DNA of 64,000 bases from Candidatus Adlerbacteria bacterium (lineage in GTDB: Bacteria > Patescibacteriota > Minisyncoccia > Phycocordibacterales > SBAW01). The translations under genes and the position numbers were made by a program. The DNA lies in the NCBI GenBank assembly GCA_043784925.1, contig JAYVXU010000025.1:22649-86648 (forward strand), in the 5' to 3' direction. Below the pieces are notes generated by a model. The model was given only the letters and a program-made list of their open reading frames with translations. It made no database searches and had not been told where the DNA came from. Below, in pieces: positions 27,278 through 44,613 of this stretch. The first letter of the stretch is position 1. Each line of letters opens with the position of its first letter.

Positions 27278-27514
27278 TTGTGGTACGATTCCAGTATGAG
27301 TGAAAAACTACTAGAAATCTTACAGCGAGCACAAGATTGGCCAGAGGCCGATCAGCAAGAACTAGCAGATTTTGCAAGCGATATTGAGATGCGCGCTAGT
27401 GGAGCATACACTGCCACATCCGACGAGCTTCAAGCGCTTGATGAGGCTGATGCAAGTGGCCCGACTACTCCTGCCCGGATGCAAGAGATATACAAGAAAT
27501 TTTCATCCATATGA
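27278..27514 (+). CDS. Type II antitoxin (addiction-module component, acidic helical)
   Basis: 78 aa, acidic. LLEILQRAQDWPEADQQELADF resembles the putative addiction module component family. 4-nt ATGA overlap with the downstream toxin. Confidence 0.55.
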   Translation: MWYDSSMSEKLLEILQRAQDWPEADQQELADFASDIEMRASGAYTATSDELQALDEADASGPTTPARMQEIYKKFSSI

Positions 27515-27801
27515 AAATTGAGTATTCTCTAAAATATTCGAATGATTTAGAGAATATTCTTGAGCGAAGTACCCAATATGGAGCACGAGTTACACGCGAA
27601 TTAACGAACTATATCTATTTAGAAATTGAAAGAATCGCCTCTTTTCCGGAGAGTGCTAAAACTTTGTCAAATAGAGAGGGTGTCCGAGTTCTGTTTCTTG
27701 TCCGATTTCCATTCGCAATATTTTATAAAGTATTCCCTGATAGGATTTATATTCAACATATTCAACACACCGCCCGCCTACCTTGGCGGGAGGTCAAATA
27801 A
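27511..27801 (+). CDS. RelE/ParE-family toxin
   Basis: 96 aa. The C-terminal FYKVFPDRIYIQHIQHTAR matches the ParE/RelE pattern (Y.v....i.I.rI.H..R). Confidence 0.6.
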   Translation: MKIEYSLKYSNDLENILERSTQYGARVTRELTNYIYLEIERIASFPESAKTLSNREGVRVLFLVRFPFAIFYKVFPDRIYIQHIQHTARLPWREVK

Positions 27802-28716: not shown

Positions 28717-28768
28717 TTCTATTGACTAGAGCAGCAGGTGCTGTATAACAAAAACGGCACTGTGTACT

Positions 28769-29029
28769 TTGCATAGGTATATAGGTGTCAACGTCCTAAG
28801 AAGTAAACGGAGAAAAACCTTGCCTAATCGCCGTACAAAAGAGGCTTTCGCAGCTATTCGCAAACAAAGAAAAAATGATATGGGTGGTTGCCTTAATGTA
28901 CCCTTAGCTCAGGCTACGCTCCGGGCTGTTGGGTCCCATATCAAACGCTCTCCGACCACTCTAACGCTTGACTGGAAAAGGCTCGAGAGGTCCATGGTTC
29001 ACTATGGTGACCCCGGCAACGAAGAATAA
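28769..29029 (+). CDS. Hypothetical basic protein
   Basis: 86 aa, Arg/Lys-rich. Terminator follows. Confidence 0.3.
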   Translation: MHRYIGVNVLRSKRRKTLPNRRTKEAFAAIRKQRKNDMGGCLNVPLAQATLRAVGSHIKRSPTTLTLDWKRLERSMVHYGDPGNEE

Positions 29030-29061
29030 TTTGCAGCAGGTCTAAGCGACCTCAAGTTCAA

Positions 29062-29090
29062 AGCCGAGCAACCTATGCTCGGCTTTTTTA
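29062..29090 (+). terminator. Rho-independent terminator
   Basis: AGCCGAGC-AACCTAT-GCTCGGCT followed by TTTTTTATTT. The track ATG at 29075 lies inside this hairpin, so it is not the real start of the next gene. Confidence 0.75.
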
Positions 29091-29137
29091 TTTATACACA
29101 AGGGCTCTTTACAACCTCTGTTATACTAAAAGTATAT

Positions 29138-31885
29138 ATGGAGAACTCAAGGAGGCTTGAGGTTGAAAAAATGCGAGACTCGGCTCGCGCTGAATTAGTG
29201 CAACTCCAAGAAAGGGCCGCGCATATTGAAGCACAACTAGAGCGCGAGTCTTCGCTCGAGTCTGGTGTGGCGCACGACCGGTCAGTAGACCGAGCTGTCG
29301 GGGAAGTATGGCAGAGAAGCGCACAGGTGCCGTCGCCTGCTATTTTGCCGCGAGTGTCCGTGCACCCGCAGGCTTTCACTTTAAAGCTGGCGCCTGAAGA
29401 ACATGACGAAAAAATGGGAGAAATTTTGCATGTGTTGCAAGAGAAAGGAGTCTCAAGCGCTATACAATATGCCGAAAAAGTAGGGAACCCACATTTGATA
29501 GACGACTTCCATCGTGTGCTTGTAGAGTGGATACATGAAGGTTTGCCGGCGCCCAAAATTAATTCGAGCTACGGACATGCACTCACGCTGACACTCTATG
29601 AAGTAACGGTCTCAAAAATAGACAAAGAAAACGAGCGAAGTAGTGACCCGGCGCGAGCGATGCATGAGTTTGTGTCGCTCATGGACCAGGTGTATCGAAG
29701 TATGCATCAAATGAATGCCAACAAGGGCGAATATTTTTCCTTTGAGATAGCAAACCCTGCGGGCAATTTGCAAACGAGCATTTATGTTGCGGTCCCCACG
29801 GCGCGCAAGTCTTTGTTTGAAAAAAACCTTTTGTCCTTGTATCCACACGCAAGGCTAGTCGAGAGACACGATGACTACAATGCTTTTTTTAATGGTTCGG
29901 CGACGGCCGCTGCAGAAGCGTATCTGACGGAGCGCCCTATATATGGTCTGCGCACCTATGAAGCTTTTTCAAGCGACCCTTTGGACGTCCTTATTAATTC
30001 ACTTTCCAAACTTGACGCAGCACATGAGGGAGCGGCTATCCAATATATTATTTCGCCACGAGATCATGGATATTTGAAACGCTTTCGAACGGCTCTCCAA
30101 AAAATCCATTCAGGCGCGCCACTGTGGCATGCAACAAATGTGAAGACAGGGTTCATGGGGTTTGTGCAAGACGTAAGTCGAGCTTTTTCCAAGCCAACTG
30201 TGGCCGCGGAGCATGAACGAGTGCGTCCGGACGACCCACGACTCAAAAATATTGAACATAAAATCTCAAGCCCAATTTTTATGGGCCACATACGCGTTGT
30301 TGCTTCGGCCGCAACTCCTATACGCGCTAAAACTATTTTAGAAGATATTGAAGCGGCGTTTCAGCAATTTGCAGACACCTCAGGAAACACTATCCGTTTT
30401 AAAGAAATTCCGGAGCGCAAAATTAAAAAGTTTGCCGAGCTTTTTTCATACCGCGTTCCAGGTAGCCACCCCATGCCTCTTTCGACAACTGAACTTGCGA
30501 CACTCGCTCACTTGCCAGGAGGAGACAGTAAACTTGCCGCACCAGAACTTCGCCAGGAAAAAAGTAATGTGGCACCTCCTCCTCCTGAGTTAGAGCACAC
30601 CGGAGCAGTGCTTGGAGTCAATACGTTCCGAGGCAATACTAAAGAAATTTACATAGCTCCTGAAGATCGTTTGCGCCATATGTACGTGATAGGGCAAACA
30701 GGGACAGGAAAATCCACGCTTCTTAAAAATGTAATATTACAAGACATACGCTCTGGGGCGGGAGTCTGCATGATAGACCCGCACGGCAATGATGTGCTCG
30801 ATATTTTGGCGTCGGTACCTCCTGAGCGCATTAAAGACGTTATCTATTTTGACCCAGGGGAAACCGCTCGGCCCATGGGGCTTAATATGTTGGAGTTTGA
30901 CCCAGCACGACCTGAGCAAAAAACGCTTGTTGTAGATGAGCTCTTAGGAATATTTAAAAAATTATTTGGTGCTGTGCCAGAAAGTATGGGCCCAGCGTTT
31001 GAACAGTATTTCCGCAATGCAGCACTCCTGGTGATGGAGGCGCCAGAGCTAGGCAGCACTCTCATGGACATTTCGCGCATATTTTCGGACGATGATTTTC
31101 GTGCAAAAAAACTGGCGGCATGTAAAAACCCAATTGTGCTTCGTTTTTGGCAAGACATAGCTATGAAGACAACTGGCGAGCAAGGACTAGAGAATTACGC
31201 ACCCTATGTAACAAACAAATTTGATGCGTTTACGACCAACGAAATTGTGCGCCCGATTATTGCACAGCAAAAGTCATCGTTTAACTTCCGCGATATTATG
31301 GACTCACGAAAGATTTTGCTCGTTAATTTGGCGAAAGGCCGCATTGGCGACATGAACGCAAACTTGCTGGGCTTGGTTATTGTTGGGAAGTTCCTCCTCG
31401 CGGCCTTGTCCCGTGCCGACTCTGTTGGGAAGGATTTGCCTCCTTTTTATTTGCATATAGACGAATTCCAAAACTTCACGACGCCGTCTATTGCTACCAT
31501 TTTTTCGGAAGCTCGAAAGTACAAGCTTTCGCTTACGGTCGCGCATCAATTTATAGCGCAGCTAACCGACGAAATTAAAGACGCTGTGTTTGGTAACGTC
31601 GGCACGATTTGCGCGTTTCGAGTAGGGGCGACTGATGCCGAGTATTTAGAAAAGCAATTTGCCCCAACCTTTAAACAAAGTGACCTCATGAATGTAGACA
31701 ATCGAAACGCCTACCTCAAACTCCTCGTTAAAGGCCGACCTGCAACCCCTTTTAATATTGAAACCCTACCGTTCCCTGATGTGCAGTTGGAGCATGTGGA
31801 CCGAATTCGCGAACTTTCTGGGCTCATGTATGGACGCCCCCGCGCGGAAGTAGAAGCTGAAATAGCCAAAACTCTCTCGTTATAA
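29138..31885 (+). CDS. Large soluble P-loop ATPase of the TraG/VirD4/HerA-FtsK superfamily with about 470-aa N-terminal domain of unknown function
   Basis: Walker A IGQTGTGKST. DPHGN. Walker B-like LHIDEFQNF. ARKYKLSLTVAHQFIAQL resembles the T4CP/TraG sensor region (RKyG..l.l.tQs.sQL). No N-terminal TM helices, unlike classical coupling proteins. Start is the ATG at 29138, or 29171 which has a GAGGT SD. Confidence 0.6.
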   Translation: MENSRRLEVEKMRDSARAELVQLQERAAHIEAQLERESSLESGVAHDRSVDRAVGEVWQRSAQVPSPAILPRVSVHPQAFTLKLAPEEHDEKMGEILHVLQEKGVSSAIQYAEKVGNPHLIDDFHRVLVEWIHEGLPAPKINSSYGHALTLTLYEVTVSKIDKENERSSDPARAMHEFVSLMDQVYRSMHQMNANKGEYFSFEIANPAGNLQTSIYVAVPTARKSLFEKNLLSLYPHARLVERHDDYNAFFNGSATAAAEAYLTERPIYGLRTYEAFSSDPLDVLINSLSKLDAAHEGAAIQYIISPRDHGYLKRFRTALQKIHSGAPLWHATNVKTGFMGFVQDVSRAFSKPTVAAEHERVRPDDPRLKNIEHKISSPIFMGHIRVVASAATPIRAKTILEDIEAAFQQFADTSGNTIRFKEIPERKIKKFAELFSYRVPGSHPMPLSTTELATLAHLPGGDSKLAAPELRQEKSNVAPPPPELEHTGAVLGVNTFRGNTKEIYIAPEDRLRHMYVIGQTGTGKSTLLKNVILQDIRSGAGVCMIDPHGNDVLDILASVPPERIKDVIYFDPGETARPMGLNMLEFDPARPEQKTLVVDELLGIFKKLFGAVPESMGPAFEQYFRNAALLVMEAPELGSTLMDISRIFSDDDFRAKKLAACKNPIVLRFWQDIAMKTTGEQGLENYAPYVTNKFDAFTTNEIVRPIIAQQKSSFNFRDIMDSRKILLVNLAKGRIGDMNANLLGLVIVGKFLLAALSRADSVGKDLPPFYLHIDEFQNFTTPSIATIFSEARKYKLSLTVAHQFIAQLTDEIKDAVFGNVGTICAFRVGATDAEYLEKQFAPTFKQSDLMNVDNRNAYLKLLVKGRPATPFNIETLPFPDVQLEHVDRIRELSGLMYGRPRAEVEAEIAKTLSL

Positions 31886-31950
31886 CCATGCCTTCCCTTG
31901 CAGTTAGAGAAAGAAAGGTATAATTACAGTATATTTTTATATAAATTTGT

Positions 31951-34326
31951 ATGAGTGAACATCAACCCCTTAGGGATAGAAGAGATAGAAGAGATAGAAG
32001 GAATGATGAATCCTCAATCCCTAAACATACACAAACTCTATCTACCCCTGTAGCTAGTGAGGGAGAGAGGAATGCCCCTAATAGAGAAGGTCGAGAAAGT
32101 GAGGAAGCAAACTCATCTTCTCCCAAACATGATACATTTAGTTGGAGTGAAGAATTGGGTACTAGGTTAAATAGTGAGGGTTTTTCTCAAGAGGAAATAT
32201 CTTTTATTCAAGGAGCAATGGTTGGGAAGAAGACCTCTAAAAAACATTTATTGAGTGTCATTGCTCTTAGTAAGGGGTTGTCTGATTTATCCGAAGAAGG
32301 AAAAGAAATGCGTAGGGAAGTGGTAGTTGAACCTGATTTTGAGTTAGAAAATTTTGCAACAATTAAAAAATTTGAGTCAATTCTTAACACCACTTCACAA
32401 GTTGCGTCTGCACCTGAACCGCCGGACCTTGCAAGAAGTGTGCCTTTTGAACCCACTGCGGCTCCTGCTGTTGCAGTGTCCTTGCCGCCAGACAACTTTC
32501 CTATTTCGAACGAGGTTCTTCATGAAGTAGCAAAAAAAATTGTTGAGCAAGAAAGAAAAGGTACAGCACAACCTAAGACTCAGACTGCTCCAGCTACGCC
32601 AGAAGTTACAAAAGATACTATTGAAATTTCTCCCGAGAGTTTAGGCTTAAGTTCAAAAATGTCCTTTATTGATGGCCCAACCTCCTCTGCGCAGGTTGAG
32701 TCGGAAATGCCTCCGGTCGAGCTAGTTGAACCACCTCACCCTGAGTTTGTTTTGAATTTAAAAAAATCAGGGCAATGGCAGACCCTGCCCTCAGGGATAA
32801 CGTCTTTAACCGATGTACAAATTCCAGAAAATACCCAAAACGTAACGTACCGCGCAGGCCCAGAAGGTGTATTGCAGGTTAAATGGACACGCGTACCACC
32901 AGAGAAATCTTCTTCAAAAAAGCCTTCCAAATCTAAAAAGGAAGAATCTGTTTCTCCAGGACCCATAAAGGTAAATTCTGAAGTATCTCCGGTAGAGCAA
33001 GGGGAAAGTGGTTCCACAACTCCAGAAGTAGCTCCAGCAACCCAACCTGTTACTAAACCCATTGCGGAGGTTAATCCAATTACAGGTCAAGAGAAGATGA
33101 GGAAAGAATTTAAAAACCACTTTGGGGAAGATACTTTTGTTACGGCAGACCCTAAAGCTGTAGACTCAAATATTGAAAAAAATACCAAAGAGTGGCGAGA
33201 ACATTTTGGAGAAGATGTTTTTGTTGAAGCTGATGCACCCGAAGCTTCGGTAGAGGCTAAAATAATTCCCCCATGGTATAGCAAATTTCCTAATTGGGTT
33301 AAGGATCAAAAGGAAAATATAAATCAAGAAGCACTTACAAGAGGAGGTGAGAGGGGCGTGAATGCTGTGCGAAAAACAGGGGAGTGGTACAAAAAACAAA
33401 ACCCCTGGATAAAAGTTGGGGTAGGAGGAGCTTTGATAGGACTTGGGCTTGGGGGAGGAGCGATTGGTGGAAGTCTCGGAGGCACAATATTTGCAATCGG
33501 TTTTACAGGTAAAGTTGTACAAAGGGGCTTGGCTGCTTCAGGAGCTTTTGTTCTTGCAGAAAGTATGTCGCGAGGATTAAGTAAAGATAAACAGCTTGAT
33601 AAAGTTTTTCTCAAAGATAAACATACACAACGTGGGCTGGCTGCGGCGGTACTCACCCTTGCTATGCCCTCAATATTTTCCTACACCGGAGCAGGAACAA
33701 TTGTGGGCCAAAAACTATCACTTGCTGGTAGTTGGTTATCAACCAATTTTGTATCTGCAACTAGATTTATAGGAGAATCCCAATTAGCAGGTGCATATCC
33801 GGCTGGTGTAGCGGTAGCACCTGTGGGCTTAACTCAGGTCGATTTATCCGATCCTGTTCAAACCGAGAAATTTACTGCACGGGCTAAAGGTCCAATACCC
33901 CACCTTACTCCTCCAAACCCTGCACCTGGAGTACCTATCACCCCATCCGCACCACCCAACGTTTCGGGCAGAATATTAGATACGCTTCAAGGAGCAAAAG
34001 TTACAAGTGGAAGCAATTTATGGAACACAATCTCAGGTACTCTTCCTTCTGAGCTTAATACGGCGCAACGTCAAAATGCGGTAGGGAATATCATACAGTG
34101 GCTTCGTGATAACCCGAACGCGCATAAAGATATACCTAACCTAACCAAAGTTATAGTTGGTACTCCACTCAGTAGTCTCCAGATTCCTCCGGAAGTTCTT
34201 CAAAACATTTATGATCATGCAAAAAATCCTCAAGTAAAATTAGGTACACTTTCCCTCGGGCCAGAAGCAACGCCAAAAACTACTTTAAAAGAAACTTTAG
34301 AGCAAGTAGCTAAAGAGCAGCATTAA
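31951..34326 (+). CDS. Large bitopic/polytopic protein with RDRRD repeat N-terminus, internal duplicated motif and Gly-rich TM block
   Basis: 791 aa. N-terminus RDRRDRRDRRNDE. Duplicated EFKNHFGEDTFVTADPKA / EWREHFGEDVFVEADAPEA. Central GVGGALIGLGLGGGAIGGSLGGTIFAIGFTG TM region. Pro-rich C-terminal domain. In operon with the ATPase. Confidence 0.55.
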   Translation: MSEHQPLRDRRDRRDRRNDESSIPKHTQTLSTPVASEGERNAPNREGRESEEANSSSPKHDTFSWSEELGTRLNSEGFSQEEISFIQGAMVGKKTSKKHLLSVIALSKGLSDLSEEGKEMRREVVVEPDFELENFATIKKFESILNTTSQVASAPEPPDLARSVPFEPTAAPAVAVSLPPDNFPISNEVLHEVAKKIVEQERKGTAQPKTQTAPATPEVTKDTIEISPESLGLSSKMSFIDGPTSSAQVESEMPPVELVEPPHPEFVLNLKKSGQWQTLPSGITSLTDVQIPENTQNVTYRAGPEGVLQVKWTRVPPEKSSSKKPSKSKKEESVSPGPIKVNSEVSPVEQGESGSTTPEVAPATQPVTKPIAEVNPITGQEKMRKEFKNHFGEDTFVTADPKAVDSNIEKNTKEWREHFGEDVFVEADAPEASVEAKIIPPWYSKFPNWVKDQKENINQEALTRGGERGVNAVRKTGEWYKKQNPWIKVGVGGALIGLGLGGGAIGGSLGGTIFAIGFTGKVVQRGLAASGAFVLAESMSRGLSKDKQLDKVFLKDKHTQRGLAAAVLTLAMPSIFSYTGAGTIVGQKLSLAGSWLSTNFVSATRFIGESQLAGAYPAGVAVAPVGLTQVDLSDPVQTEKFTARAKGPIPHLTPPNPAPGVPITPSAPPNVSGRILDTLQGAKVTSGSNLWNTISGTLPSELNTAQRQNAVGNIIQWLRDNPNAHKDIPNLTKVIVGTPLSSLQIPPEVLQNIYDHAKNPQVKLGTLSLGPEATPKTTLKETLEQVAKEQH

Positions 34327-34349
34327 CGGTAGGAGCGCCAACGGAAGTT

Positions 34350-34721
34350 ATGACCTCGCCAGGGGATGCAACAACGCTTGCCGCTATGGTTGGTTCACCA
34401 AGTGAAATGCCTCTTAATATAAGCTCTGAAACTATTGCCGACTATGCAATAAATAAATTTGGTGATGCTCAGAAAGGAGGATTTTTTAGTAAACTTTTTG
34501 GATCAAAGTTGGTTTCAAATATAGACTGGTCGAAGGTGAGTAAGTTACCAGCCTCGACCATTTTCGATGGAACCCCCAATAAATTCCTTACTCCAGTCCA
34601 GTTAGCCACACTTAAAGCTGACCTTTTGTCAGTACACAATAAAGTAGTTGGCCTTGATCTCAGCCATAAAACAGTGGAGGAGGTTATTAAAGTTGGTTTA
34701 GAAAAGAGGATACTGACCTAG
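34350..34721 (+). CDS. Hypothetical protein (123 aa), operon member
   Basis: Tightly spaced (23 nt) after the 791-aa gene, same strand. Confidence 0.45.
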   Translation: MTSPGDATTLAAMVGSPSEMPLNISSETIADYAINKFGDAQKGGFFSKLFGSKLVSNIDWSKVSKLPASTIFDGTPNKFLTPVQLATLKADLLSVHNKVVGLDLSHKTVEEVIKVGLEKRILT

Positions 34722-34763
34722 AATCCAAATTGAAGTGTGAAATTATTTAGATAAGTAAACAAT

Positions 34764-35075
34764 ATGCCAATAGAAACCATACAAAAGATGTTAGCAGAGC
34801 AATTGGGGGTAGGGGACGCTCCGCCCGAAGTACAAGTGGCCGTTGTTGATGAAATAGGGGGCTTGGCTCTTGAGCGATTGACCATGCTTATATTTGCGCA
34901 ATTGTCTGAAGTGGACCGAGCGGCGTTTGAGAAGCTACAAGACTCCAAGGACTCCTCTGGTATGCAAAATTTAATTACACAAAAGGTGCCAAACTTAGAG
35001 CAACTCACGAGTGAAGCCATAAAAACCGAAATACAAGCTTTTCAAGAGTTTCAAAAAGCACTTCCTAACGACTAG
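34764..35075 (+). CDS. Small acidic helical protein (103 aa), operon member
   Basis: Same strand, 42-nt gap. No family recognised. Confidence 0.45.
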   Translation: MPIETIQKMLAEQLGVGDAPPEVQVAVVDEIGGLALERLTMLIFAQLSEVDRAAFEKLQDSKDSSGMQNLITQKVPNLEQLTSEAIKTEIQAFQEFQKALPND

Positions 35076-35172
35076 CATGTCTTCATCGTCTTAATATCAT
35101 CGTGCAACAATTATTTTATCAAAGATAGGTTGTATTGAATCTTGTGTGCGAGTATTCTTATATTGAAGCGCT

Positions 35173-36465
35173 ATGAGTAAAAAAAGTTTACATAACTTAT
35201 TTGTAAGTAGCCTAGGCTTAGGAGCTCTCTTTTTTATTGGTATACTCGTGAGTACCGCCGGTATTCCAAGCACAACAAATGCAGAAAGTGTACCGCATCC
35301 TCCTCCGGTTATCTCCTCAATCTCTTCTTCGCCTAGTGACACGACCGCGATTATCACCTGGACAACGAGTGTGCCCGCAGATTCGCAAGTCGTGTTTGGC
35401 GTTTCCACTTTGAATAGCGTATTTTCTGAATTGCGTACGGCCCCGGTTACCAACCACTCGGTTGTTATTACCGACCTTAAGCCCAACACCCAGTACCACT
35501 TCCAAGTATTATCTCAAAACGCCGCAAGTCCGGACGCAAGTTCTGGCTTAGGTATTTCTGACGATGGAGTCTTCACAACCCAAGCTGCTCATACTACCTC
35601 AGCACCCGAGTCCGATGGTGTACATACCAATGACTCTTCCTCAGGGGCACCTCCAATAGCCAACTTTAATCTACCGGTTATTTCGCAATTATTGTCGACA
35701 ACAACCGACATAAGTGCGACAGTCACCTGGAATACCGACCAGCCAGCCACAGGGCAAATATTTTTTGGCACTTCTAGTTCGTACACGAACACAAGCTCAT
35801 TTACGAACGCATTTCAAAAAGATCACTCGATTGTGGTAAACAATCTCCTTCCTAATACGGAGTACCACTTCAACGTATATTCCGGAACGCAAGTTGGGGT
35901 AGCAAGTTCTAGTGACTATGTGTTCAAAACACAAACCCCTATTTCAAATCCTGTTGTGTCTACCGAGCCGCCTCCACCCGTAGCACCTCCTAATGCTGAA
36001 ATAGCATCCCTCAGGCAGGAGATAGAAGGTATGAAGCATCGGATGAATTTGTTTGAACGTATATTGGCTTGGATATTAGGCTACCCAGTTGATAACTTCG
36101 ACGCTAACCATTCGGCTACTCCACCTGCAACTCCTGCCACAGGACTTCCGCCAGTAAGCACGCCTTCTCCAACTCCACCTGCTACTCCCGCTCCTGAGGC
36201 AACCCCGAACACCGCAACAATTGGCCAAAATGGAGCTACCTATGCTCCTGGTGCATCCGTTGATTTTAGTGGTAAAAATTTTGGCCACGAAGAGTCGGTG
36301 ATCATCACAAAAGGGGGTGCGAGTGTTCGTCAGGTACACGCAGACGGAGGAGGTAACTTTTCGTCCGGATCTATCACGCTTCCGACTGACGCAGGAGCAT
36401 ACCAGTATGTTTTTACGGGTGAGCAGAGCCATATTTCAGCCACCGCTTCAATTACAGTTAAATAG
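35173..36465 (+). CDS. Surface protein with two fibronectin-III / purple-acid-phosphatase-N-like domains, coiled coil and Pro/Thr linker
   Basis: Signal/TM. Two repeats (TAIITWTTSVPADSQVVFGVS...NTQYHFQV ; ISATVTWNTDQPATGQIFFGTS...NTEYHFNV). Then TPPATPATGLPPVSTPSPTPPATPAPEATP linker and a C-terminal domain. Confidence 0.6.
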   Translation: MSKKSLHNLFVSSLGLGALFFIGILVSTAGIPSTTNAESVPHPPPVISSISSSPSDTTAIITWTTSVPADSQVVFGVSTLNSVFSELRTAPVTNHSVVITDLKPNTQYHFQVLSQNAASPDASSGLGISDDGVFTTQAAHTTSAPESDGVHTNDSSSGAPPIANFNLPVISQLLSTTTDISATVTWNTDQPATGQIFFGTSSSYTNTSSFTNAFQKDHSIVVNNLLPNTEYHFNVYSGTQVGVASSSDYVFKTQTPISNPVVSTEPPPPVAPPNAEIASLRQEIEGMKHRMNLFERILAWILGYPVDNFDANHSATPPATPATGLPPVSTPSPTPPATPAPEATPNTATIGQNGATYAPGASVDFSGKNFGHEESVIITKGGASVRQVHADGGGNFSSGSITLPTDAGAYQYVFTGEQSHISATASITVK

Positions 36466-36653: not shown

Positions 36654-37799
36654 ATGCACGCAAATCAAAAGAAACCAATTATGCAACCCATTACACTCAG
36701 TTTATTTTTTCCAACCTACAACGAGGAAAAAAATATAGAAGAAACTATTTTGCGCACCATTCAGGTGGTAGAAGATTCGCCATATATATCTGACTATGAG
36801 CTTATTGTGGTTAATGATGGGAGTTCGGATGCCACCAAAATAATTGCCGAAAATTTGGCCCTCGAGCATCCGCATGTCAGAGTCATTAACCACGAAAAGA
36901 ATAGTGGCTATGGTGCTGCCCTTAAAACAGGTATTACAGAAGCTCGTATGGACTATGTCTTTTTTACCGATGCAGACTTACAGTTTGACATCATCGAACT
37001 CCAGAACCTCCTAGTGCATTTGCCTGAATATAAAGTAGTGATAGGGTATCGAGCCCCCCGGCAAGACCCCGCTATGCGCCTTCTCAACGCATGGGTGTGG
37101 AACAAGCTCAACCGAATACTATTTGGCCTCAAAATTCGAGATATTGATTGTGCTTTTAAATTATTTAAACGCGAAAATGTACAAGCCCTCTCGCTTCAGT
37201 CACGGGGTGCAATGATCAGTGCTGAAACACTTATACGCCTTACTCGAGAAGGAGTGGTTATTAAAGAAGTTCCTGTATCTCATTTGCCCCGTAAGGCAGG
37301 TTCTCCAACAGGTGCAAAGTTGTCAGTTATTTTGCGTGCTATGCAAGAGATGGCGGAATTATATCGAGGTGAACTTGGTAGCATAACCCAAAAAGAAGCA
37401 CTCAAATTTATGACTGTTGGAGTACTCAATACTCTTTTGGATGCTGCTTTCTACATATTGCTGACACGAGGAACTGTTCTATTTGCAGACCATTTAGTTG
37501 TGGCAAAATTTCTTTCATTCCTTGCAGGCACTGTTTCGTCACTCCTTATTAATCGTTACTGGACGTTTGGAATGCGCTCACGATTGACATGGAGCGAAGT
37601 TGCACGTTTTTACGCGATGACCTCTGTGTCTATTGCTATAAACGTAGCGCTAATGAACTTCTTTGTGAGTATGGGTATATATGACTTAGTGGCACTCTGC
37701 ATCACCACAGTATTTACATTTATGGCTAACTTCACCCTTTCTAAAATGTGGGTGTTTAAGAAGCGAGAAGCAGAGAAACAACTTATTCATCAAGCATAA
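36654..37799 (+). CDS. GT2 polyprenyl-phosphate glycosyltransferase fused to GtrA-like membrane domain
   Basis: LIVVNDGSSDAT, GYGAALKTG, FFTDADLQFD (DxD region). C-terminal 4-TM GtrA-like module. Possible start at the ATG at 36681. Confidence 0.8.
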   Translation: MHANQKKPIMQPITLSLFFPTYNEEKNIEETILRTIQVVEDSPYISDYELIVVNDGSSDATKIIAENLALEHPHVRVINHEKNSGYGAALKTGITEARMDYVFFTDADLQFDIIELQNLLVHLPEYKVVIGYRAPRQDPAMRLLNAWVWNKLNRILFGLKIRDIDCAFKLFKRENVQALSLQSRGAMISAETLIRLTREGVVIKEVPVSHLPRKAGSPTGAKLSVILRAMQEMAELYRGELGSITQKEALKFMTVGVLNTLLDAAFYILLTRGTVLFADHLVVAKFLSFLAGTVSSLLINRYWTFGMRSRLTWSEVARFYAMTSVSIAINVALMNFFVSMGIYDLVALCITTVFTFMANFTLSKMWVFKKREAEKQLIHQA

Positions 37800-37806
37800 G
37801 CTATAT

Positions 37807-38262
37807 ATGAAAAAAACAACTCTACAACTTACTCTTTTCATCGGAATCATTTTGATGAGTGTGGGAACTCCTGCATTTGCTGCTACAAAAACACACATCA
37901 AAAAGCATACTTCAAACACAGGAACTCAGGTAGTAGTGCCTCCTTCTTCGACTAGTGCTGCGTCTTCATCTGAGGCACAAGGATCTACAGAACTTCAGAG
38001 TACCTCTACCACTACTTCCCATGAGTACGCTGCAGCAGTTCTTGGCGTAACTCTAGGTTCCCCAGATTCTAATCAGCCAGGTGCTCCCGTATATTCGCTT
38101 TCTAATAAGTTGACTCTACTGCAAACACAAGTGTACACGGTCCTTATACTACTCCTTGTGGTGCTTGGTATTTTCCTTATAAGTGAGTTAGACATTGTTG
38201 AAGCTTCTGCTTTACTTCGACAGGTATTTACCGGACCCCAGAGTCGTCGCGCGCTACAATAA
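37807..38262 (+). CDS. Secreted Ser/Thr-rich protein with C-terminal TM, hypothetical
   Basis: 151 aa, signal peptide, S/T-rich tract, C-terminal hydrophobic helix. Confidence 0.45.
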   Translation: MKKTTLQLTLFIGIILMSVGTPAFAATKTHIKKHTSNTGTQVVVPPSSTSAASSSEAQGSTELQSTSTTTSHEYAAAVLGVTLGSPDSNQPGAPVYSLSNKLTLLQTQVYTVLILLLVVLGIFLISELDIVEASALLRQVFTGPQSRRALQ

Positions 38263-38274
38263 ATTATTTCCACT

Positions 38275-39498
38275 ATGATTACTCGACTATTCGGCTCAAT
38301 ACTGCTATGTATCGCACTCATATTGGCGGTTGTTGTTGTATACCGAAATAGTGGAGCGGGGGAAGTGCCTCTTATCTTTTCTCCGGTGCAGTTGCTCAGT
38401 GCTACATGGCTTACGTACACTCAGTCGTATGTAGAGCCTAATACCTATCGAACAATTGATACCCAAAGAGGTGTCACCACTTCGGAAGGTCAGAGTTACA
38501 CGATGCTTCGCTCAGCATGGATGGCTGATAGAAAAACCTTTGACGGGTCTTGGAAATGGACTCAAACAAATATGTATCATACCAACGATCACTTGCTTGC
38601 ATGGTTATGGGGAAAAAAACCAGACGGTACCTACGGAGTCCTTCTTGAACAAAATGGCGAAACAAGTGCAAGTGACGCTGACACTGACCTAGCGTTGTCC
38701 CTGGTGTTTGCGTACGCGCGTTGGCAAGACCCACAGTATTTAGTGGACGCTCGAAATATTATCCAAGACATCTGGGCAAAAGAAGTTATCGAAATTAATG
38801 GTGAGCCTTATTTGACTGCGGATGATCTTGAAAAGAATTCTAAAGGTGAATACGCGATAATTAACCCATCCTACTTGAGCCCGGCCGCATATAAAATATT
38901 TGCCCAAGTTGACCCCGCACACCCCTGGAGTCGGGTAGCTGACACATCGTACAAGCTCCTAGCACAAAGTATTGATTTACCGTTTGATACACCGGGGAGT
39001 GCGCATCTTCCACCTGATTGGATACAAATTGACAAAAAGACTGGGGATATATCAGCAATTGAAAATACTACAAATACCTCTCGTTTTGGTTTCGATGCTT
39101 TGCGTGTGCCGTATCGCGTAGCACTTGACTGGGAGTGGTTTAAGGACGAACGTGCTAAAAGTACACTTCAAAAAATGAATTTCCTGTCCTTGCAGTGGAA
39201 TAAAAACCACACACTCTCTTCAACCTATACCCACGATGGCCAAGTCTTTACTGCGTCTGAGGCTCCAGCTATGTATGGAGGCACAATTGGGTACTTCATC
39301 GTGGCTGGACCAGCGAGTGTTGCCTCAGATGTGTATCATCAAAAATTAGTATTTTTGTATGATCCTGGAGCAAACACCTGGAAAGAACCGCTTTCCTACT
39401 ATGACGATAACTGGGTTTGGTTTGGCATCGCACTGTATAACCACCTTCTGCCTAACCTTGCCGCTTCACTTCCACCTTCTGCCTTTATTCAAAATTAA
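38275..39498 (+). CDS. Glycoside hydrolase family 8 (BcsZ-like endo-beta-1,4-glucanase), membrane-anchored
   Basis: N-terminal TM. TSEGQSYTML matches GH8 EGQSYGM. ASDADTDLA matches the GH8 A(S/T)D(A/G)D.D motif. Confidence 0.7.
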   Translation: MITRLFGSILLCIALILAVVVVYRNSGAGEVPLIFSPVQLLSATWLTYTQSYVEPNTYRTIDTQRGVTTSEGQSYTMLRSAWMADRKTFDGSWKWTQTNMYHTNDHLLAWLWGKKPDGTYGVLLEQNGETSASDADTDLALSLVFAYARWQDPQYLVDARNIIQDIWAKEVIEINGEPYLTADDLEKNSKGEYAIINPSYLSPAAYKIFAQVDPAHPWSRVADTSYKLLAQSIDLPFDTPGSAHLPPDWIQIDKKTGDISAIENTTNTSRFGFDALRVPYRVALDWEWFKDERAKSTLQKMNFLSLQWNKNHTLSSTYTHDGQVFTASEAPAMYGGTIGYFIVAGPASVASDVYHQKLVFLYDPGANTWKEPLSYYDDNWVWFGIALYNHLLPNLAASLPPSAFIQN

Positions 39499-39518
39499 TA
39501 ACTAATATAAGCACTACC

Positions 39519-41090
39519 ATGAGCCCGTACGAAGAAAAAGACTACATACACATGAAAAAGGATTTCCTTAAGACAGATGCTCCAAAAGCATTACTTATTT
39601 TCAATGCATTTTTTGCAGGGTTGTATTTTGTGATGATCACTTTCTTTTTTACGGTGGATAATAAAATCCTTTTTTATCTTCTTGTAGCGGGGGAAGTGTT
39701 TCACCTTTGGCAAGTATTTACTTTCCTTTACACCATTTGGGACACTTCGTACGTGTCTCCAAAAACAACACGTACCAGGCCGGGGGTCGACGTGTTCATT
39801 ACCGTAGCGGGGGAGCCGGTCGAGTTAGTTGAAAAAACAATTACGGCAGCTCAAGCCATGAACTATCCAGATTTTGAAATTCATATTCTCAATGATGGTT
39901 TTGTAGCAAATCGTGATAATTGGCGAGACATTGAGGCTCTTTCCTCGCGCCTTGGGGTGCATTGTATTACCCGCACGATCCCCGGAGGTGCAAAGGCGGG
40001 GAACATTAACAATGCTTTGAAGTTGACTGAGCGTCCTTTGGTTGCTATTTTTGACGCCGACCATGTGCCACATTCTGATTTCTTAACAAAAACAGCTGCA
40101 TACTTTACCGACGCAAAGGTTGGGTTTGTGCAGACCCCACAGTTTTACAAAAACTATGCAGAAAATTATTTAACGCGTAGCTCCTGGGAACAACAAGAGC
40201 TCTTCTTTGGGCCTATATGTAAAGGAAAAAATAGACTCAATAGTGCAACTATGTGCGGCACTAATATGCTTATTTCTCGCACGGCCCTTGAGGTTGTCGG
40301 AGGCATGTATACTGAGTCGATTGCAGAAGATTTTGTGACGGGGCTTATAATGCACTCTCGGGGGTATCGCTCTGTATACCATGGCGAAGTACTTGCAGAA
40401 GGCCTTGCCACTGAGGATCTTCTTTCCTACTCAAAACAACAATTTAGATGGGCACGTGGGGCTTTGGATGTTATCTTTCGCTTTAATCCATTCTTTATGC
40501 GGGGCCTGACGTTTGCGCAAAGAATCCAGTACATTTCTTCAGCAAGTTTCTATCTGTCAGGAATTTTCGTCGTGATAGATGCACTCCTTCCCATCGTCTA
40601 CTTCTTTACGGGTCAGGTTGCGGTCCATTTAAACAGCATGTTGCTTGCGACCATATTCTTGCCATACTTCTTCTTGACTATGTATGTGATCCAACGCTCT
40701 TCAAACTTTACCTTTACCTTTCCGAGCCTCGGATTTTCCATGGGTGGATTTAATATCCATCTTCGCGCCTTGTACTCGGCGGTAACATTCCAAAAAGCAG
40801 CATTTTCTATTACTCAAAAATATAAAGAAGAAGGGAACTTCCTCCCCTTGGTGAAGTGGCATATAGCCTACATTGTGCTTGTGGTTGTTGGAGTTGGGGT
40901 TGCGTTTGTCCGCGAAGGTTTGTCTGCATCGCTTATAAATAACGCTGCGTGGGGATTGCTCAATAGTATTGTCCTCATACCGTTCATTAAGGCCGCACTT
41001 CCTGACCGCGCAGATTCTCCAGCTTTAGCTATGCCCAAACCACACCTGCAGCTTCGAAAGAAAAAAATATATGGCACAACTGAGAACTAA
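39519..41090 (+). CDS. Cellulose-synthase-like GT2 processive glycosyltransferase (no PilZ domain)
   Basis: DAD/DxD motifs (IFDADHVP), QQFRWARG = QxxRW, multiple TM flanking. C-terminus lacks RxxxR/DxSxxG PilZ motifs. Confidence 0.75.
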   Translation: MSPYEEKDYIHMKKDFLKTDAPKALLIFNAFFAGLYFVMITFFFTVDNKILFYLLVAGEVFHLWQVFTFLYTIWDTSYVSPKTTRTRPGVDVFITVAGEPVELVEKTITAAQAMNYPDFEIHILNDGFVANRDNWRDIEALSSRLGVHCITRTIPGGAKAGNINNALKLTERPLVAIFDADHVPHSDFLTKTAAYFTDAKVGFVQTPQFYKNYAENYLTRSSWEQQELFFGPICKGKNRLNSATMCGTNMLISRTALEVVGGMYTESIAEDFVTGLIMHSRGYRSVYHGEVLAEGLATEDLLSYSKQQFRWARGALDVIFRFNPFFMRGLTFAQRIQYISSASFYLSGIFVVIDALLPIVYFFTGQVAVHLNSMLLATIFLPYFFLTMYVIQRSSNFTFTFPSLGFSMGGFNIHLRALYSAVTFQKAAFSITQKYKEEGNFLPLVKWHIAYIVLVVVGVGVAFVREGLSASLINNAAWGLLNSIVLIPFIKAALPDRADSPALAMPKPHLQLRKKKIYGTTEN

Positions 41091-42594
41091 AACAATCGCG
41101 CTACTACTCACTATGATGAGTGTGCCCATACTTCTGTCGTACTTTTTCTTCATGAGTCAAAGTTTACGACTCGATGAGTCGCAAAGTTTGTGGCAAACCA
41201 GTCGAAACGTACTTGATATATTTTCCATTGTAGCAGGTGACGTCCATGTTCCTCTGTTCCACATATTGCTCCATTTTTGGATTCTTCTCTTTGGAGAAAC
41301 AGTGCAAATTGCTCGAGGTATGTCGCTTTTCTTCTTCCTTTTGAGTATCCCCGCGCTGTATGTGCTCGGGAAGTACGCCTATGACCGAACGGTCGGACTT
41401 TTTGCTGCGCTCCTTTTTTCTATTTCTCCATTCATGAATTGGTATGGAAATGAGATACGAATGTACACCTTGTTTACTTTTTGTGTGATTTTAAATCATT
41501 TCTTTTTTCTGCATATTTTTAAAGCAAATCTATCTAAAGTCACACCGCAAAATCGAAAAATCAAAGATAGTATGTGGGTCGGCTATACCCTCACTGCAGT
41601 TGTCGGTGTTTTTTCGCACTACTTCTTCTTCCTTATTTTGGCGTCGCAGCTTGTATTTTATTTTTTGCGTCGAGACTTGTTTTCGTCAGGCACTCTACAG
41701 AGGTTGGGAGTGGCAGCAGCCGTAGTGCTCGGCACCATTGCTCCTTGGGGTTGGTACGTGCTCCATAAAGGCCAGGCAGCTTTTCAAGAACCAACACTTG
41801 GCACACCAACAACGGTTAACTTGTTTAGTTCAGTTGCTCAATTTATGTTTGGTTTCCAAAGTGACAAGATAAACACTTTCTTCCTTTCTCTCTGGCCCGT
41901 GAGTGTGATCTTTGGTCTGTTTGCTTTACGGCGAGGTCAAAAAATGCAGCCAGAGACCGAATATTTTCTGGTGGCCGTTGTGGTACCTTTTTTCCTCGCT
42001 TTCTTTGGAAGTTTTATACTGGCTCCTATCTTTGTGAGCCGCTATTTAATATTTACCGTACCACCATTGTACCTCCTTATCTCAAAGGTCTGTAGTAATT
42101 ATTCTCCACGGATGGCCACGACACTTCGGTATGTGCTTGTTGGGGTCATGATATGTACTTTGCTTATTGAAATCGCAAATTCGCAAGCTCCCGTTAAAGA
42201 GAATTATAAAGATGCTGCGCAATATTTAACAACACACGCAACAGTGCAAGATGTGATTGTGTTGTCGGCCCCTTTTACCATATATCCTATTCAATATTAT
42301 TATCGCGGTGCGGTACCGGTGAAGACATTGCCTGAATGGAATCAGTATGCGTACGGACCTATACCATCGTTTAATGAGTCGACTCTTCCCGCGCAAGCAA
42401 CAGAGGTTGCTGACAAAAGTCAAAATCTGTACCTACTTCTCAGCTATGACCAAGGATACGAAAATAAAATTCGCGTGTATTTCGACACACATTACCAGCG
42501 TACTGACCAAAAGAACTTTTCTAATGGGTTAAATCTGTATGTGTATCGTTTGCGGTATGACACCGGTTTGTCGGCCATAAGTTCCAATAAATAA
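41071..42594 (+). CDS. GT-C fold glycosyltransferase (GT39/PMT_2, ArnT-like)
   Basis: 507 aa, polytopic. Early motif YVLGKYAYDRTVGLFAALLFSISPFMNWYG typical of the PMT_2 family. Overlaps the upstream gene by 20 nt. Confidence 0.6.
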   Translation: MAQLRTKTIALLLTMMSVPILLSYFFFMSQSLRLDESQSLWQTSRNVLDIFSIVAGDVHVPLFHILLHFWILLFGETVQIARGMSLFFFLLSIPALYVLGKYAYDRTVGLFAALLFSISPFMNWYGNEIRMYTLFTFCVILNHFFFLHIFKANLSKVTPQNRKIKDSMWVGYTLTAVVGVFSHYFFFLILASQLVFYFLRRDLFSSGTLQRLGVAAAVVLGTIAPWGWYVLHKGQAAFQEPTLGTPTTVNLFSSVAQFMFGFQSDKINTFFLSLWPVSVIFGLFALRRGQKMQPETEYFLVAVVVPFFLAFFGSFILAPIFVSRYLIFTVPPLYLLISKVCSNYSPRMATTLRYVLVGVMICTLLIEIANSQAPVKENYKDAAQYLTTHATVQDVIVLSAPFTIYPIQYYYRGAVPVKTLPEWNQYAYGPIPSFNESTLPAQATEVADKSQNLYLLLSYDQGYENKIRVYFDTHYQRTDQKNFSNGLNLYVYRLRYDTGLSAISSNK

Positions 42595-42605
42595 AAAAGC
42601 AGGTG

Positions 42606-43364
42606 CTACTCCTCCTGTGTAAGAGTCAAAAGGGAAGCAGCGCTCCATGCTTGCACGCAACATGCTCCTTGACCACATAGGTCAGGGCTTAAGAGTCGTT
42701 TAACAACATGAGGAATGTATTCGGTTTTGAGTATGCAGTCAAGTGAGCCGTCCTGAGCTTTTGTTGTAGCAAAAAAACAATGTCCCATACTTGACCGAGC
42801 GGAGGTAAGTGGACGGCCCGTACCATCGAGTGCAAACGCTAATGATATAGGTCCAGCGCCGTGCAATATAAACGACTGATTGAACCTCTCTTTAAGCGCC
42901 ATTGCTTCCTGTATGAGCTCCTGACCACGCGTAGTATCAGAATGTAGAATAATTAGATACCCCATGCGTGTAAAGCTGCGTACGCGTACCCTCGGGCCTC
43001 TACTGGGGCTATTGGATATTGTGGTCGTTCGTCATAATTTTCAAAAAATACTGATTCTGTTGAATCCATCCAACTTTGCGTGCGAAGTACACCCAAATGT
43101 ACGTTTTGGGTCGTACGCGAGCCCTAAGTTGAGTAATGTCCAATAATTAACTCCATACAGATCTTTCACACGCGCTTCACGAAGTGCGCGAGGGTAGACA
43201 GATTCAAGCCGGGACGAGCTCATAGAGTCGCCAGATGCAAAAAGGGTTACCTCGTGCGCTCGTCGTACTAGCTCTTCTGTAAGTCCATATACAACTCTTT
43301 CAGTACCACCATATTTTTTAGGTGGTACGCGCTCCGCTATGGGAGCGATCTGTGCAGATTTTCA
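42606..43364 (-). pseudogene. Degraded GT4 glycosyltransferase (frameshifts plus internal deletions)
   Basis: Minus-strand translation shows MKI then a +1 shift into APIAERVPPKKYGGTERVVYGLTEELVRRAHEVTLFASGDS (GT4 N-terminal domain), stops, and a C-terminal piece with the GT4 EAMA motif (GQELIQEAMALKE). Total under 760 nt against about 1.1 kb for an intact GT4. Confidence 0.5.
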
Positions 43365-44564
43365 TTACCGCTCTACAATGTCGTAGTCAGATGAATGCTT
43401 TATGAAGACTAAATCGACATAGAGGATGCCGATGGCTATAAGCATCATAACGCTAGGGATCCTCAAATCCGGATGTAGGCCTGCGAACCAAGATACTTGA
43501 GATAAATAGGGCATGTATGCCACTAATGAAGCGCCAACAATAAATACGGGTATAAACCAGCGAGATGGTCTATAGAAGACATATATAACGGAAAAGAGAT
43601 CTGCTAAATAAAAATATCGCTCATGCATGCGAGGAAGTAAGTAAGGGAGTACTGCCACACAGAGGGTGGAAATAAGCACGAGAGTCGGCACATTCATTTC
43701 TTTTTTCAGATATACATATACGGTAATAATCAGAGCACAGAGGATAGCCACAACAAGACCAGCGGCAAATAAAGTTTGCTCAGAAAGGCCAAAAATATCG
43801 GCATGTAGTATCGCAAATATATTTTGAGCCGAGACACTAAGAGATGTGTACTCACTGGACTGGCGAGCGTACACCAGCAAAAGGTCGCCCAGTGACCCGC
43901 CGCCAAGCCGGGCGGGGATTATGGATAGAAAATAAATGCAAGGAATAGCTAGTAAATATCCAGCACTACTTTCTTTTCGCAAACAATAGCCAATGAGCAC
44001 GGGTAAGAAAAATATTGCTTGTAACTTGCAAGAAAGAGCAACAGACAAACTGACCACGGCCGAAAGGGGCATGTCGCGAATAATAAAGTAGAGGCAAAGT
44101 ACTACCCCGGCCGCATATATAGAGTCAGACTGTCCCCAAGTGGCACCGTTAAGCACCAGGGTCGGAATAGAAAACATTACCGCAAATATAAAAAATAATT
44201 TTTCTTTGGGGTAGTTTTCTTTCGTGGTGTATTTAATCAGTCTATAAGTTATGTATGCGATGAGGACGTCAAACAAGACGGACATGGTTTTAGTGCTGTA
44301 GAGGCTGGATACGGGAATAAAGGTGAGGAGTTTGAGAAGATATAAGTAGAGTGGAGCATAATCAGAAAAACGCTGGGTAAATGCAGTAAGTCCTGGGTGC
44401 TCTTGGAGTACGACAAACCACTTGCTTACAAAGTAAATGTAATCCGAGGTCTGAATAGGGTAGGAGATTAACCTAAAAAGTACTGACAGTATAAGTAGTG
44501 CACTTCCACCAAAGTAGCCCGTCCATATGGAAGGGCTACTGCGAGGCGTTGTCCCCAATAGCAT
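43365..44564 (-). CDS. Polytopic membrane protein, GT-C-like (DUF2029/mannosyltransferase-like), hypothetical
   Basis: 399 aa, about 10 TM helices, within a glycosyltransferase cluster. Confidence 0.4.
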   Translation of the reverse strand: MLLGTTPRSSPSIWTGYFGGSALLILSVLFRLISYPIQTSDYIYFVSKWFVVLQEHPGLTAFTQRFSDYAPLYLYLLKLLTFIPVSSLYSTKTMSVLFDVLIAYITYRLIKYTTKENYPKEKLFFIFAVMFSIPTLVLNGATWGQSDSIYAAGVVLCLYFIIRDMPLSAVVSLSVALSCKLQAIFFLPVLIGYCLRKESSAGYLLAIPCIYFLSIIPARLGGGSLGDLLLVYARQSSEYTSLSVSAQNIFAILHADIFGLSEQTLFAAGLVVAILCALIITVYVYLKKEMNVPTLVLISTLCVAVLPYLLPRMHERYFYLADLFSVIYVFYRPSRWFIPVFIVGASLVAYMPYLSQVSWFAGLHPDLRIPSVMMLIAIGILYVDLVFIKHSSDYDIVER

Positions 44565-44613
44565 GTCTCTACTGTAACATCTATTCTAGAACTTTCAAGT
44601 GACAGGACCGGTA

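Follow-up and report, generated by a model that had tools for sequence, protein, structure and literature searches.

In R388's type IV secretion system (T4SS) structures, VirB4 docks through its N-terminal domain on the tails of VirB3 and VirB8. Type IV coupling proteins (T4CPs) without a transmembrane domain (TMD) form a recognized subgroup, 'T4CP lacking TMD' (PMC7434980). For the Patescibacteria, Quinonero-Coronel et al. 2025 (PMC12102498) count 5,713 VirD4-type homologues, spread over 2,918 of 3,035 genomes and of which just 148 lie close to virB4, and state that exaptation of these T4CP homologues is 'not ruled out'; they also report a VirB4 cluster in most Patescibacteria, with VirB4 in 2,417 genomes. 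The essential T4SS cluster of Saccharibacteria is without a recognizable coupling protein (Wang et al., PMC10633639). Here we analyse a T4CP-family ATPase and its neighbours in a 64,000-nucleotide (nt) stretch of Candidatus Adlerbacteria DNA, referred to below as the window (contig JAYVXU010000025.1, forward-strand positions 22,649–86,648).

The initial annotation of this locus proposed a five-gene operon for translocation or surface assembly, led by the ATPase. The five open reading frames (ORFs) are all present on the plus strand, with successive gaps of 65, 23, 42 and 97 nt, as are the motifs quoted for them (GQTGTGKST, DPHGN, HIDEFQNF, LSLTVAHQF, RDRRDRRDRR, the duplicated EFKNHFGEDTFV / EWREHFGEDVFV and a Gly-rich hydrophobic block). 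The operon is reduced to three genes, however, since a frameshift has divided a single gene into two of the ORFs and the last, encoding a protein with FN3 domains, is excluded. This leaves the ATPase, its large membrane neighbour and a protein of the DUF5663 family (PF18908). We put at an even chance that these three components form a functional unit, in which an anchor-less coupling-protein motor is docked to a membrane partner and serves a conserved, non-conjugative use.

The ATPase and its relatives

The ATPase gene is shorter than the 936-aa ORF first called. The first ATG of that ORF (29,075) sits in the loop of a terminator-like hairpin, which the first 21 codons, hydrophobic in content, overlap. 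Homologues align from residue 20 onwards and have an N-terminal 'ME' that corresponds to M22. Because the first ATG lies inside the hairpin and the homologues begin at 'ME', the sequence identifies M22 as the true start of a 915-aa protein, and the 21 hydrophobic codons are excluded from the gene.

As initially annotated, this is a TraG/VirD4-type ATPase without an N-terminal transmembrane (TM) anchor: no hydrophobic segment occurs before residue 700, and the single one flagged lies in the ATPase core. It exceeds the cut-offs of the Pfam models DUF87 (28 bits against 23.2) and TraG-D_C (23.9 bits against 22), whereas T4SS-DNA_transf, TrwB_AAD_bind and TraD stay below cut-off; TrwB_AAD_bind is weak on the window protein (E = 0.018, local Pfam) but precomputed for many relatives. 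The NCBIfam TraD/VirD4 thresholds are missed (best TIGR03743, 49.4 bits against a cut-off of 366), as is that of the VirB4 model TIGR00929 (18.8 bits against 643). The N-terminal domain, originally described as belonging to no recognizable family, does have one: PF26449 (DUF8128) is precomputed for an identical database protein (P0001) and for nearly all homologues, although our local Pfam scan of the window ATPase reported no match to it. The GQTGTGKS and hhhhDE motifs are invariant across 80 homologues, and a profile built from these 80 retrieves TrwB (3.8e-7) and DotL (1.2e-4) from the PDB sequences, with VirB4 not among the matches.

The fold was analysed with an AlphaFold2 model of the full ATPase (mean pLDDT 87) searched by Foldseek. 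TrwK/VirB4 ranks first, aligning over ~900 columns and both domains (E = 1e-15), followed by HerA, which aligns to the ATPase core only, and then by TrwB, Cag-beta and DotL, which align to the ATPase half only. The TM-score to TrwB is 0.60–0.65 normalized to TrwB, and canonical T4CPs overall score 0.55–0.65 (target-normalized). For the N-terminal domain, Foldseek gives nine matches with E < 1e-3, all of them TrwK chains. As modelled, the protein is a VirB4-type N-domain joined to a coupling-protein-type ATPase with an all-alpha insertion. Across 77 Patescibacteria sequences the mean column identity of this insertion is 0.76, against 0.75–0.80 for the catalytic core, and conservation at the level of the core suggests that what the insertion contacts, be it partner or substrate, is itself conserved and not a changing cargo.

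Relatives on mobile elements assign the ATPase to a described system, which the initial annotation could not do. P0109 of Planomonospora alba, with one TM helix, DUF8128 and the ATPase, sits in an actinobacterial integrative and conjugative element (ICE) that reads integrase, excisionase-like helix-turn-helix protein, T4SS pilin, TrbL-like protein, PrgI/VirB3, VirB4, P0109, Replic_Relax relaxase and NlpC/P60 hydrolase. In addition, ~290 Bacillus plasmid records contain a 'DUF87' protein that is 23–25% identical with both domains covered and, like the window protein, has no N-terminal TM helix. In the two Bacillus plasmids that we opened (L094, 3558–6215; L095, 6111–8852), a replication-relaxation (Replic_Relax) gene directly follows it and TcpE/VirB4-like transfer genes are present. 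Because the ICE and Bacillus plasmid relatives adjoin relaxase and VirB4-like genes, the DUF8128 ATPase lineage is a true subfamily of coupling proteins from mobile elements of monoderms, namely that of actinobacterial ICEs and Bacillus conjugative plasmids. PLSDB types 335 of 497 matching plasmid records as non-mobilizable, including both opened plasmids despite their transfer genes. SPO1-like phages share the DUF8128 and ATPase architecture, as does phage G (gp156; phrog_5156, of unknown function; phage records H16–H25).

In Patescibacteria the family is near-universal. A scan of species-representative genomes returned more than 514 ATPase relatives, of which 80 loci from many classes were fetched; the neighbourhood counts given here rest on 83 or 85 Patescibacteria loci. 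The nearest public relative belongs to a Candidatus Adlerbacteria metagenome-assembled genome (ATPase 76% identity), which places the window in the Paceibacteria. Two forms of the ATPase exist, one of ~800 aa with a single N-terminal TM helix and one of ~920 aa without it, the latter being the window form. Encoded before the short form is a free-standing soluble protein of 125–146 aa, collinear with long-form residues 1–150 through coiled coil, linker and three-helix domain (KGV..A..dPy.LD.FHD.L). Since this small upstream protein is collinear with the N-terminus of the long form, sequence comparison identifies the long form as a gene fusion with a small helical partner, the anchor having been replaced. 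In one clade (L064–L066, L073, L074, L077, L078 and L082) the gene immediately upstream of the TM-anchored ATPase belongs to a second, unrelated small family (150–178 aa, motif IPGVNKFFLEQEAKIKTDKI), and dnaX is often just downstream.

The neighbours of the ATPase are overwhelmingly housekeeping genes: the end of the ribosomal superoperon (secY-adk-map) and then ndk, or dnaX, gyrBA, TGT and a membrane FKBP. In 83 Patescibacteria loci, nothing related to the ICE VirB4, TrbL, PrgI or relaxase lies within 10 kb; no VirB4, VirB6, relaxase, integrase or mating-pair-formation (MPF) family was found in the scanned genes of the 64-kb window; and no VirB3-like small two-TM protein lies beside the ATPase. 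The unit is judged non-conjugative because relaxase, VirB4 and VirB6 were not found nearby, and the ATPase is chromosomal, vertically inherited and not conjugative. From its matches to T4CP models, the DUF8128 ATPase family is probably among the reported VirD4-type T4CP homologues. At one locus (L002, 13398–18294), ~4.9 kb downstream of ATPase-ndk is without a called gene, and an ORF scan gives short ORFs only.

The large membrane protein and its DUF5663 neighbour

The 791-aa and 123-aa ORFs belong together. In an Adlerbacteria relative (L003/L087) and four database relatives (P0117–P0120) a single ORF spans the counterparts of both. In the window their frames overlap by only ~12 nt, and the contig of a near-identical strain (L091; DUF5663 protein 98% identical) carries an additional C, between 34,314 and 34,315 of the window, giving a continuous ORF of 923 aa (788 + 12 + 123). 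Since relatives have a single ORF and the extra C restores the 923-aa frame, the comparison identifies the two as one gene, split here by a 1-nt deletion that may be a real frameshift or an assembly error. Two small proteins had initially been linked to the ATPase; the 103-aa DUF5663 protein keeps that place through recurrent adjacency, whereas the 123-aa protein is the C-terminus of the membrane protein.

Large partner proteins across loci have little shared sequence and one architecture. From N to C terminus, a charged coiled-coil N-part and a GEWYKKQPxWKK-like motif come before a 34-residue Gly-rich hydrophobic stretch, which a K/R-rich loop joins to a second hydrophobic stretch; there follow Pro-rich linkers, a V.kG..lW...I.pG..i.L segment and a C-terminal module, which is the 123-aa ORF of the window. 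The predicted topology is N-in, with a cytoplasmic N-part, a Gly-rich membrane hairpin plus one further helix, and an external C-part. The HFGED motif, duplicated in the N-part, recurs one to two times in the closest relatives only (P0118–P0120). The external segment looks LysM-like: the segments of 2 of 10 relatives match the LysM model, over its first 12 positions only and at E values of 0.01–0.05, below cut-off. An exhaustive HMMER search with the membrane and C-terminal part found 20 matches with E < 1e-3 among 1.84 billion representatives. So few matches suggest that divergence in this family outpaces what sequence searches can follow, at a rate typical of surface-exposed proteins. A word-index search with the 791-aa protein returned no relatives, its candidate list being saturated by low-complexity words. 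Partner proteins also carry lineage-specific tandem repeats, with four copies of EEWSEKDEMFERYDGRGQKNQEEEKQ in L067 (12330–14084) and three of KDYSIFTGPHATGAGIDPRTE in L093 (10107–12170, minus strand). Some large proteins beside the ATPase elsewhere are unrelated to the membrane partner, for example ClpB in L052.

The 103-aa protein that follows scores 20.7 bits against PF18908, just below the cut-off of 23.7. The family is precomputed for a 98%-identical protein (P0112) and four other homologues, and the relative in the metagenomic locus L086 reaches 28.9 bits. Queried with the 103-aa protein, the word index returned just five homologues, all close. An iterated profile placed DUF5663 in 11 of 83 loci, within one to three genes of the ATPase and in every case immediately behind the large protein, and a hidden Markov model of the membrane block added linked loci L081 and L013. 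The large protein and DUF5663 thus lie beside the ATPase in ~14 of 85 loci, and in three arrangements, downstream, upstream and inverted. The pair is upstream of the ATPase in the clade of L046, L049 and L081, whereas in L093 (ATPase 63% identical) it is adjacent, on the opposite strand and convergent, at the end of a ftsW-mraY-dacA-scpBA string. In a neighbour-joining tree the association appears in both deep ATPase branches and in 7 of the 11 members of the window subclade. A reciprocal metagenome context scan with a narrow alignment gave two loci. The proposed link between ATPase and large membrane protein is borne out, its adjacency recurring in distant Patescibacteria lineages with different gene orders. 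We conclude from these sequence comparisons that the large protein and DUF5663 are a tight pair, recurrently but not obligatorily linked to the ATPase.

A relationship of DUF5663 to the small fused partner domain was considered and rejected (hhalign probability 0.1%). Against the PDB, the only matches of the DUF5663 profile come from adding up weak scores over repeated protein A three-helix constructs, which we treat as helical or compositional resemblance.

Proposed mechanism and alternatives

In the functional unit that we favour, the ATPase would be a hexamer-type translocase of the T4CP lineage, working as a ring at the membrane. It has lost the single membrane helix kept by its relatives and absorbed the small helical partner at its N-terminus. 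The cytoplasmic part of the membrane protein would bring the soluble enzyme to the membrane, with the lineage-specific duplicated HFGED motif or the K/R-rich loop as candidate contact sites, and DUF5663, small, acidic and apparently cytoplasmic, may act as an accessory or adaptor. Docking of this kind would be analogous to that of VirB4 on the VirB3/VirB8 tails. Reliance on a membrane partner would resemble that of the anchor-less TraJ of pIP501 on TraI (PMC7434980, PMC12857230). The conserved cellular use is probably to move DNA, or else a conserved protein, across the membrane or at it. A bolder form of this proposal, which we consider quite unlikely, holds that the ATPase, the GEWYKKQ-block protein and DUF5663 are an undescribed, minimal, Patescibacteria-specific translocation machine, derived from a coupling protein and independent of the VirB4 T4SS, that moves DNA or a conserved protein across a single membrane. 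If true, such a machine would matter for organisms that import building blocks from a host.

Several observations weigh against a three-component unit. Some 70 of the 85 ATPase loci have neither the large protein nor DUF5663 nearby, many of them reading secY-adk-map / ATPase / ndk, and L086 has the pair with no ATPase within 8 kb. The two are thus more closely tied to each other than to the ATPase, and inherited synteny could account for some of the linkage. Unrelated, non-syntenic contexts elsewhere were named in the initial annotation as evidence against a module, and most homologues do lie in housekeeping contexts; yet the adjacency of the pair recurs. The predicted topology of the membrane protein comes only from hydropathy (maximum Kyte-Doolittle 1.57) and the positive-inside rule. 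In the window its frameshifted gene may be inactive, unless the shift is an assembly error. Finally, according to PMC12102498, the t4cp homologue of Ca. Southlakia epibionticum, a possible member of the DUF8128 subfamily, is not essential for epibiotic growth.

Two alternatives do without a separate three-component unit. The ATPase may be the genuine coupling protein of a distant VirB4-type T4SS, delivering substrates to it, of which the membrane protein and DUF5663 would be accessory parts, or to which they would be irrelevant. We regard this as unlikely but worth serious weight, given its descent from true T4CPs, the frequent location of T4CP genes far from virB4 and the VirB4 cluster of most Patescibacteria (both from PMC12102498), and a modelled VirB4-like N-domain that could dock on the same inner-membrane platform. 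It has to contend with the lack of any T4SS gene within 10 kb in 83 loci, and with T4CP homologues that occur in more genomes (2,918) than VirB4 does (2,417) and that are dispensable in Ca. S. epibionticum, where the T4SS genes are essential (PMC12102498). Moreover, the Saccharibacteria cluster has no recognizable coupling protein (PMC10633639), and housekeeping contexts together with a highly conserved all-alpha insertion are unlike an effector-specificity module. It is less probable still that the ATPase alone is a housekeeping DNA translocase, clearing chromosomes at division as FtsK does or driving DNA uptake, with its adjacency to the pair a matter of inherited synteny. Membership of the FtsK/HerA/TrwB superfamily would fit, as would a near-universal, strongly conserved gene found singly per locus among ribosomal, secY, dnaX and gyrBA genes, and the position of the L093 pair behind ftsW-mraY-dacA-scpAB. 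The protein has no FtsK N-terminal TM domain, however; no FtsK gamma-domain family is among its Pfam matches, the FtsK_SpoIIIE match covers the P-loop only and is sub-threshold (21.3 bits against 24), and adjacency in three arrangements in separate clades is poorly explained by pure inheritance. As to HerA-NurA pairing, no nuclease adjoins the ATPase and the N-domain is VirB4-like, not a HAS-barrel. A defence-system reading was rejected, PADLOC giving only a partial mad8/HerA match at the level of the P-loop.

The five-gene operon as first proposed, a dedicated surface-assembly or translocation module of soluble ATPase, scaffold, two small adaptors and FN3 surface protein, now seems very improbable. 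Five same-strand ORFs with short gaps fit it, as does the near-identical strain L091, in which the FN3 gene again follows DUF5663. The FN3 protein itself was described correctly, with fn3 (63.6 bits) and Pur_ac_phosph_N (39.1 bits) each matching two stretches in Pfam. One 'adaptor', however, is the C-terminal end of the membrane protein, set apart by the frameshift. The sister species keeps synteny from GroEL to DUF5663 (GroEL-LemA-DUF2207-HtpX) and then has reverse-strand genes and a Fic protein instead of the FN3 gene; no FN3 protein lies beside the ATPase in the 82 other loci; and the 97-nt gap before the FN3 gene holds a promoter-like site. Because it is absent at the sister-species position, missing at the other loci and preceded by a promoter-like site of its own, the FN3 gene is, as judged from sequence, an unrelated neighbour outside the conserved unit. 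We give hardly any credence to the locus being the decayed remnant of an integrated conjugative element. The closest relatives outside Patescibacteria are indeed on ICEs, plasmids and phages, and a ParDE-like pair lies 1.3 kb upstream, but no integrase, relaxase or MPF gene is among the scanned window genes, base composition is unremarkable and without a break across 29,075–36,465, and the GroEL-LemA-DUF2207-HtpX synteny is kept in the sister species. Clades with distinct architecture and gene context, and with catalytic motifs intact, fit vertical descent.

Genomic surroundings and described relatives

The features of the locus are collected in the table. Upstream lie GroEL, LemA, DUF2207, the ParDE-like toxin–antitoxin pair and the protease HtpX. 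The toxin–antitoxin pair (27,278–27,801, between DUF2207 and HtpX) consists of a 78-aa acidic ORF with a 4-nt overlap to a 96-aa protein matching Pfam ParE_toxin; the sister species has a MazG-like 103-aa gene in its place. The 340-nt spacer 3' of HtpX (28,717–29,095) contains only a weak basic ORF starting with TTG and then the strong terminator hairpin, which ends the upstream HtpX/spacer unit; it is missing from the sister species. The spacer matches no Rfam family at gathering score, its one sub-threshold match being cow-rumen-4 on the minus strand (27 bits against 48.5), on the terminator hairpin, and its fold z-score is −1.6. An RNA gene was rejected on these two grounds; a small RNA and a decayed gene are both conceivable for the spacer. 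Neither tRNA genes nor Rfam families at gathering score were found in the 64-kb window. Downstream is a glycan cluster (36,654–45,990) with a GT2 fused to GtrA, GH8, a cellulose-synthase-like GT2, a PMT_2-like glycosyltransferase and GH6, together with a 151-aa Ser/Thr-rich membrane protein and a 399-aa protein. The FN3 protein may go with this cluster instead of the ATPase.

Table. Positions of the ORFs, genes, domains and motifs of the locus in the window.
Feature	Position	Strand	Description
Terminator-like hairpin	29060-29095	+	11-bp stem (29060-29086), 6 G-C pairs, then T-run
ORF 1	29075-31885	+	936 aa as first called; ORF scan
ORF 2	31951-34326	+	791 aa; ORF scan
ORF 3	34350-34721	+	123 aa; ORF scan
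ORF 4	34764-35075	+	103 aa; ORF scan
ORF 5	35173-36465	+	430 aa; ORF scan
T4CP-family ATPase	29138-31885	+	915 aa; no TM helix; database Pfam DUF8128 and DUF87
N-terminal extension, aa 1-135	29138-29545	+	Coiled coil, disordered linker, three-helix domain (LQEKGV..NPHLIDDFHRVLVEW)
DUF8128 domain, aa 150-470	29585-30547	+	Predicted VirB4 N-terminal-domain fold
TrwB/VirD4-type P-loop ATPase domain, aa 490-880	30605-31777	+	
Walker A GQTGTGKS	30692-30715	+	
All-alpha insertion, aa 594-724	30917-31309	+	Eight helices between Walker A and Walker B strands in model
Walker B DE	31460-31465	+	Within HIDEFQNF (31454-31477)
Large membrane protein gene	31951-34721	+	923 aa intact; split here into 791-aa and 123-aa ORFs
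Duplicated motif [EK][FW][KR]xHFGED	33106-33246	+	Charged TM-free N-part; copies EFKNHFGEDTFV / EWREHFGEDVFV
Conserved membrane block	33379-33708	+	GEWYKKQxxW, 34-residue Gly-rich hydrophobic stretch, K/R-rich loop, 25-residue hydrophobic stretch
Conserved beta-alpha..alpha-beta stretch	33994-34191	+	Presumed external part; V.kGs.lW...I.pG..i.L
DUF5663 (PF18908) protein	34764-35075	+	103 aa, acidic, helical
FN3 surface protein	35173-36465	+	430 aa; signal anchor, two FN3 domains, Pro-rich linkers, Ig-like C-terminus

Patescibacteria are a large share of bacterial diversity, with tiny genomes and, according to PMC12102498, about two coupling-protein homologues per genome that have no known role. 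The family has already been described under the name 'T4CP homologues', and coupling proteins without an anchor are known as well. We did not find in the searchable literature the VirB4-type fold of DUF8128, the split or fused small partner, or the association with a GEWYKKQ-block protein and DUF5663; text searches for DUF8128 and DUF5663 returned no paper. These features offer handles on the ATPase family, in a VirB4-like docking domain, a partner that is separate or fused by lineage and a candidate membrane receptor pair. A coupling-protein lineage with a VirB4-type N-domain common to Patescibacteria, Bacillus plasmids, actinobacterial ICEs and SPO1-like phages also bears on the divergence of VirB4 and VirD4. 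For annotation, the start codon of the ATPase is corrected and two ORFs are merged into one gene.

Among described proteins, the DUF8128-type coupling proteins of the P. alba ICE (P0109) and of Bacillus subtilis and B. licheniformis plasmids have the same architecture of DUF8128 and TrwB-like ATPase as the window protein. Identities are 23–33%, the Bacillus proteins aligning over ~75% of the length and P0109, which is annotated with DUF8128, over ~48% (the C-terminal half). Whereas these relatives adjoin a Replic_Relax relaxase and VirB3/VirB4/VirB6-like genes, the window ATPase is chromosomal without such genes nearby, and it differs from them in its fused coiled-coil and three-helix extension. 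TrwB (R388), VirD4, DotL and Cag-beta share the P-loop core and the all-alpha insertion with it. In canonical T4CPs, however, an N-terminal two-helix TM domain directly precedes the ATPase and there is no VirB4-like N-domain, whereas the window protein has no TM helix and ~470 extra residues. VirB4/TrwK aligns in fold over the full length, but its sequence models barely match, and the ICE and plasmid relatives of the window ATPase coexist with a separate VirB4.

The Patescibacteria VirD4-type T4CP homologues of Quinonero-Coronel et al. 2025 are probably the same gene family as the window ATPase; in the accessible part of that paper (PMC12102498) we found no description of a VirB4-like N-domain, a fused small partner or a link to a GEWYKKQ-block protein and DUF5663. 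A parallel for the proposed arrangement is offered by TraJ with TraI of pIP501 and by TraG–TraJ pairs, in which the coupling protein has no membrane domain itself, or needs a partner, and relies on a membrane protein encoded beside it (PMC7434980, PMC12857230). No homology to TraI was seen, no comparison aimed at it having been made. The partner in the window differs from the small two- to five-helix partner of the TraI type in its size of ~920 aa, its apparently large external part and its association with DUF5663, and it is not on a plasmid.

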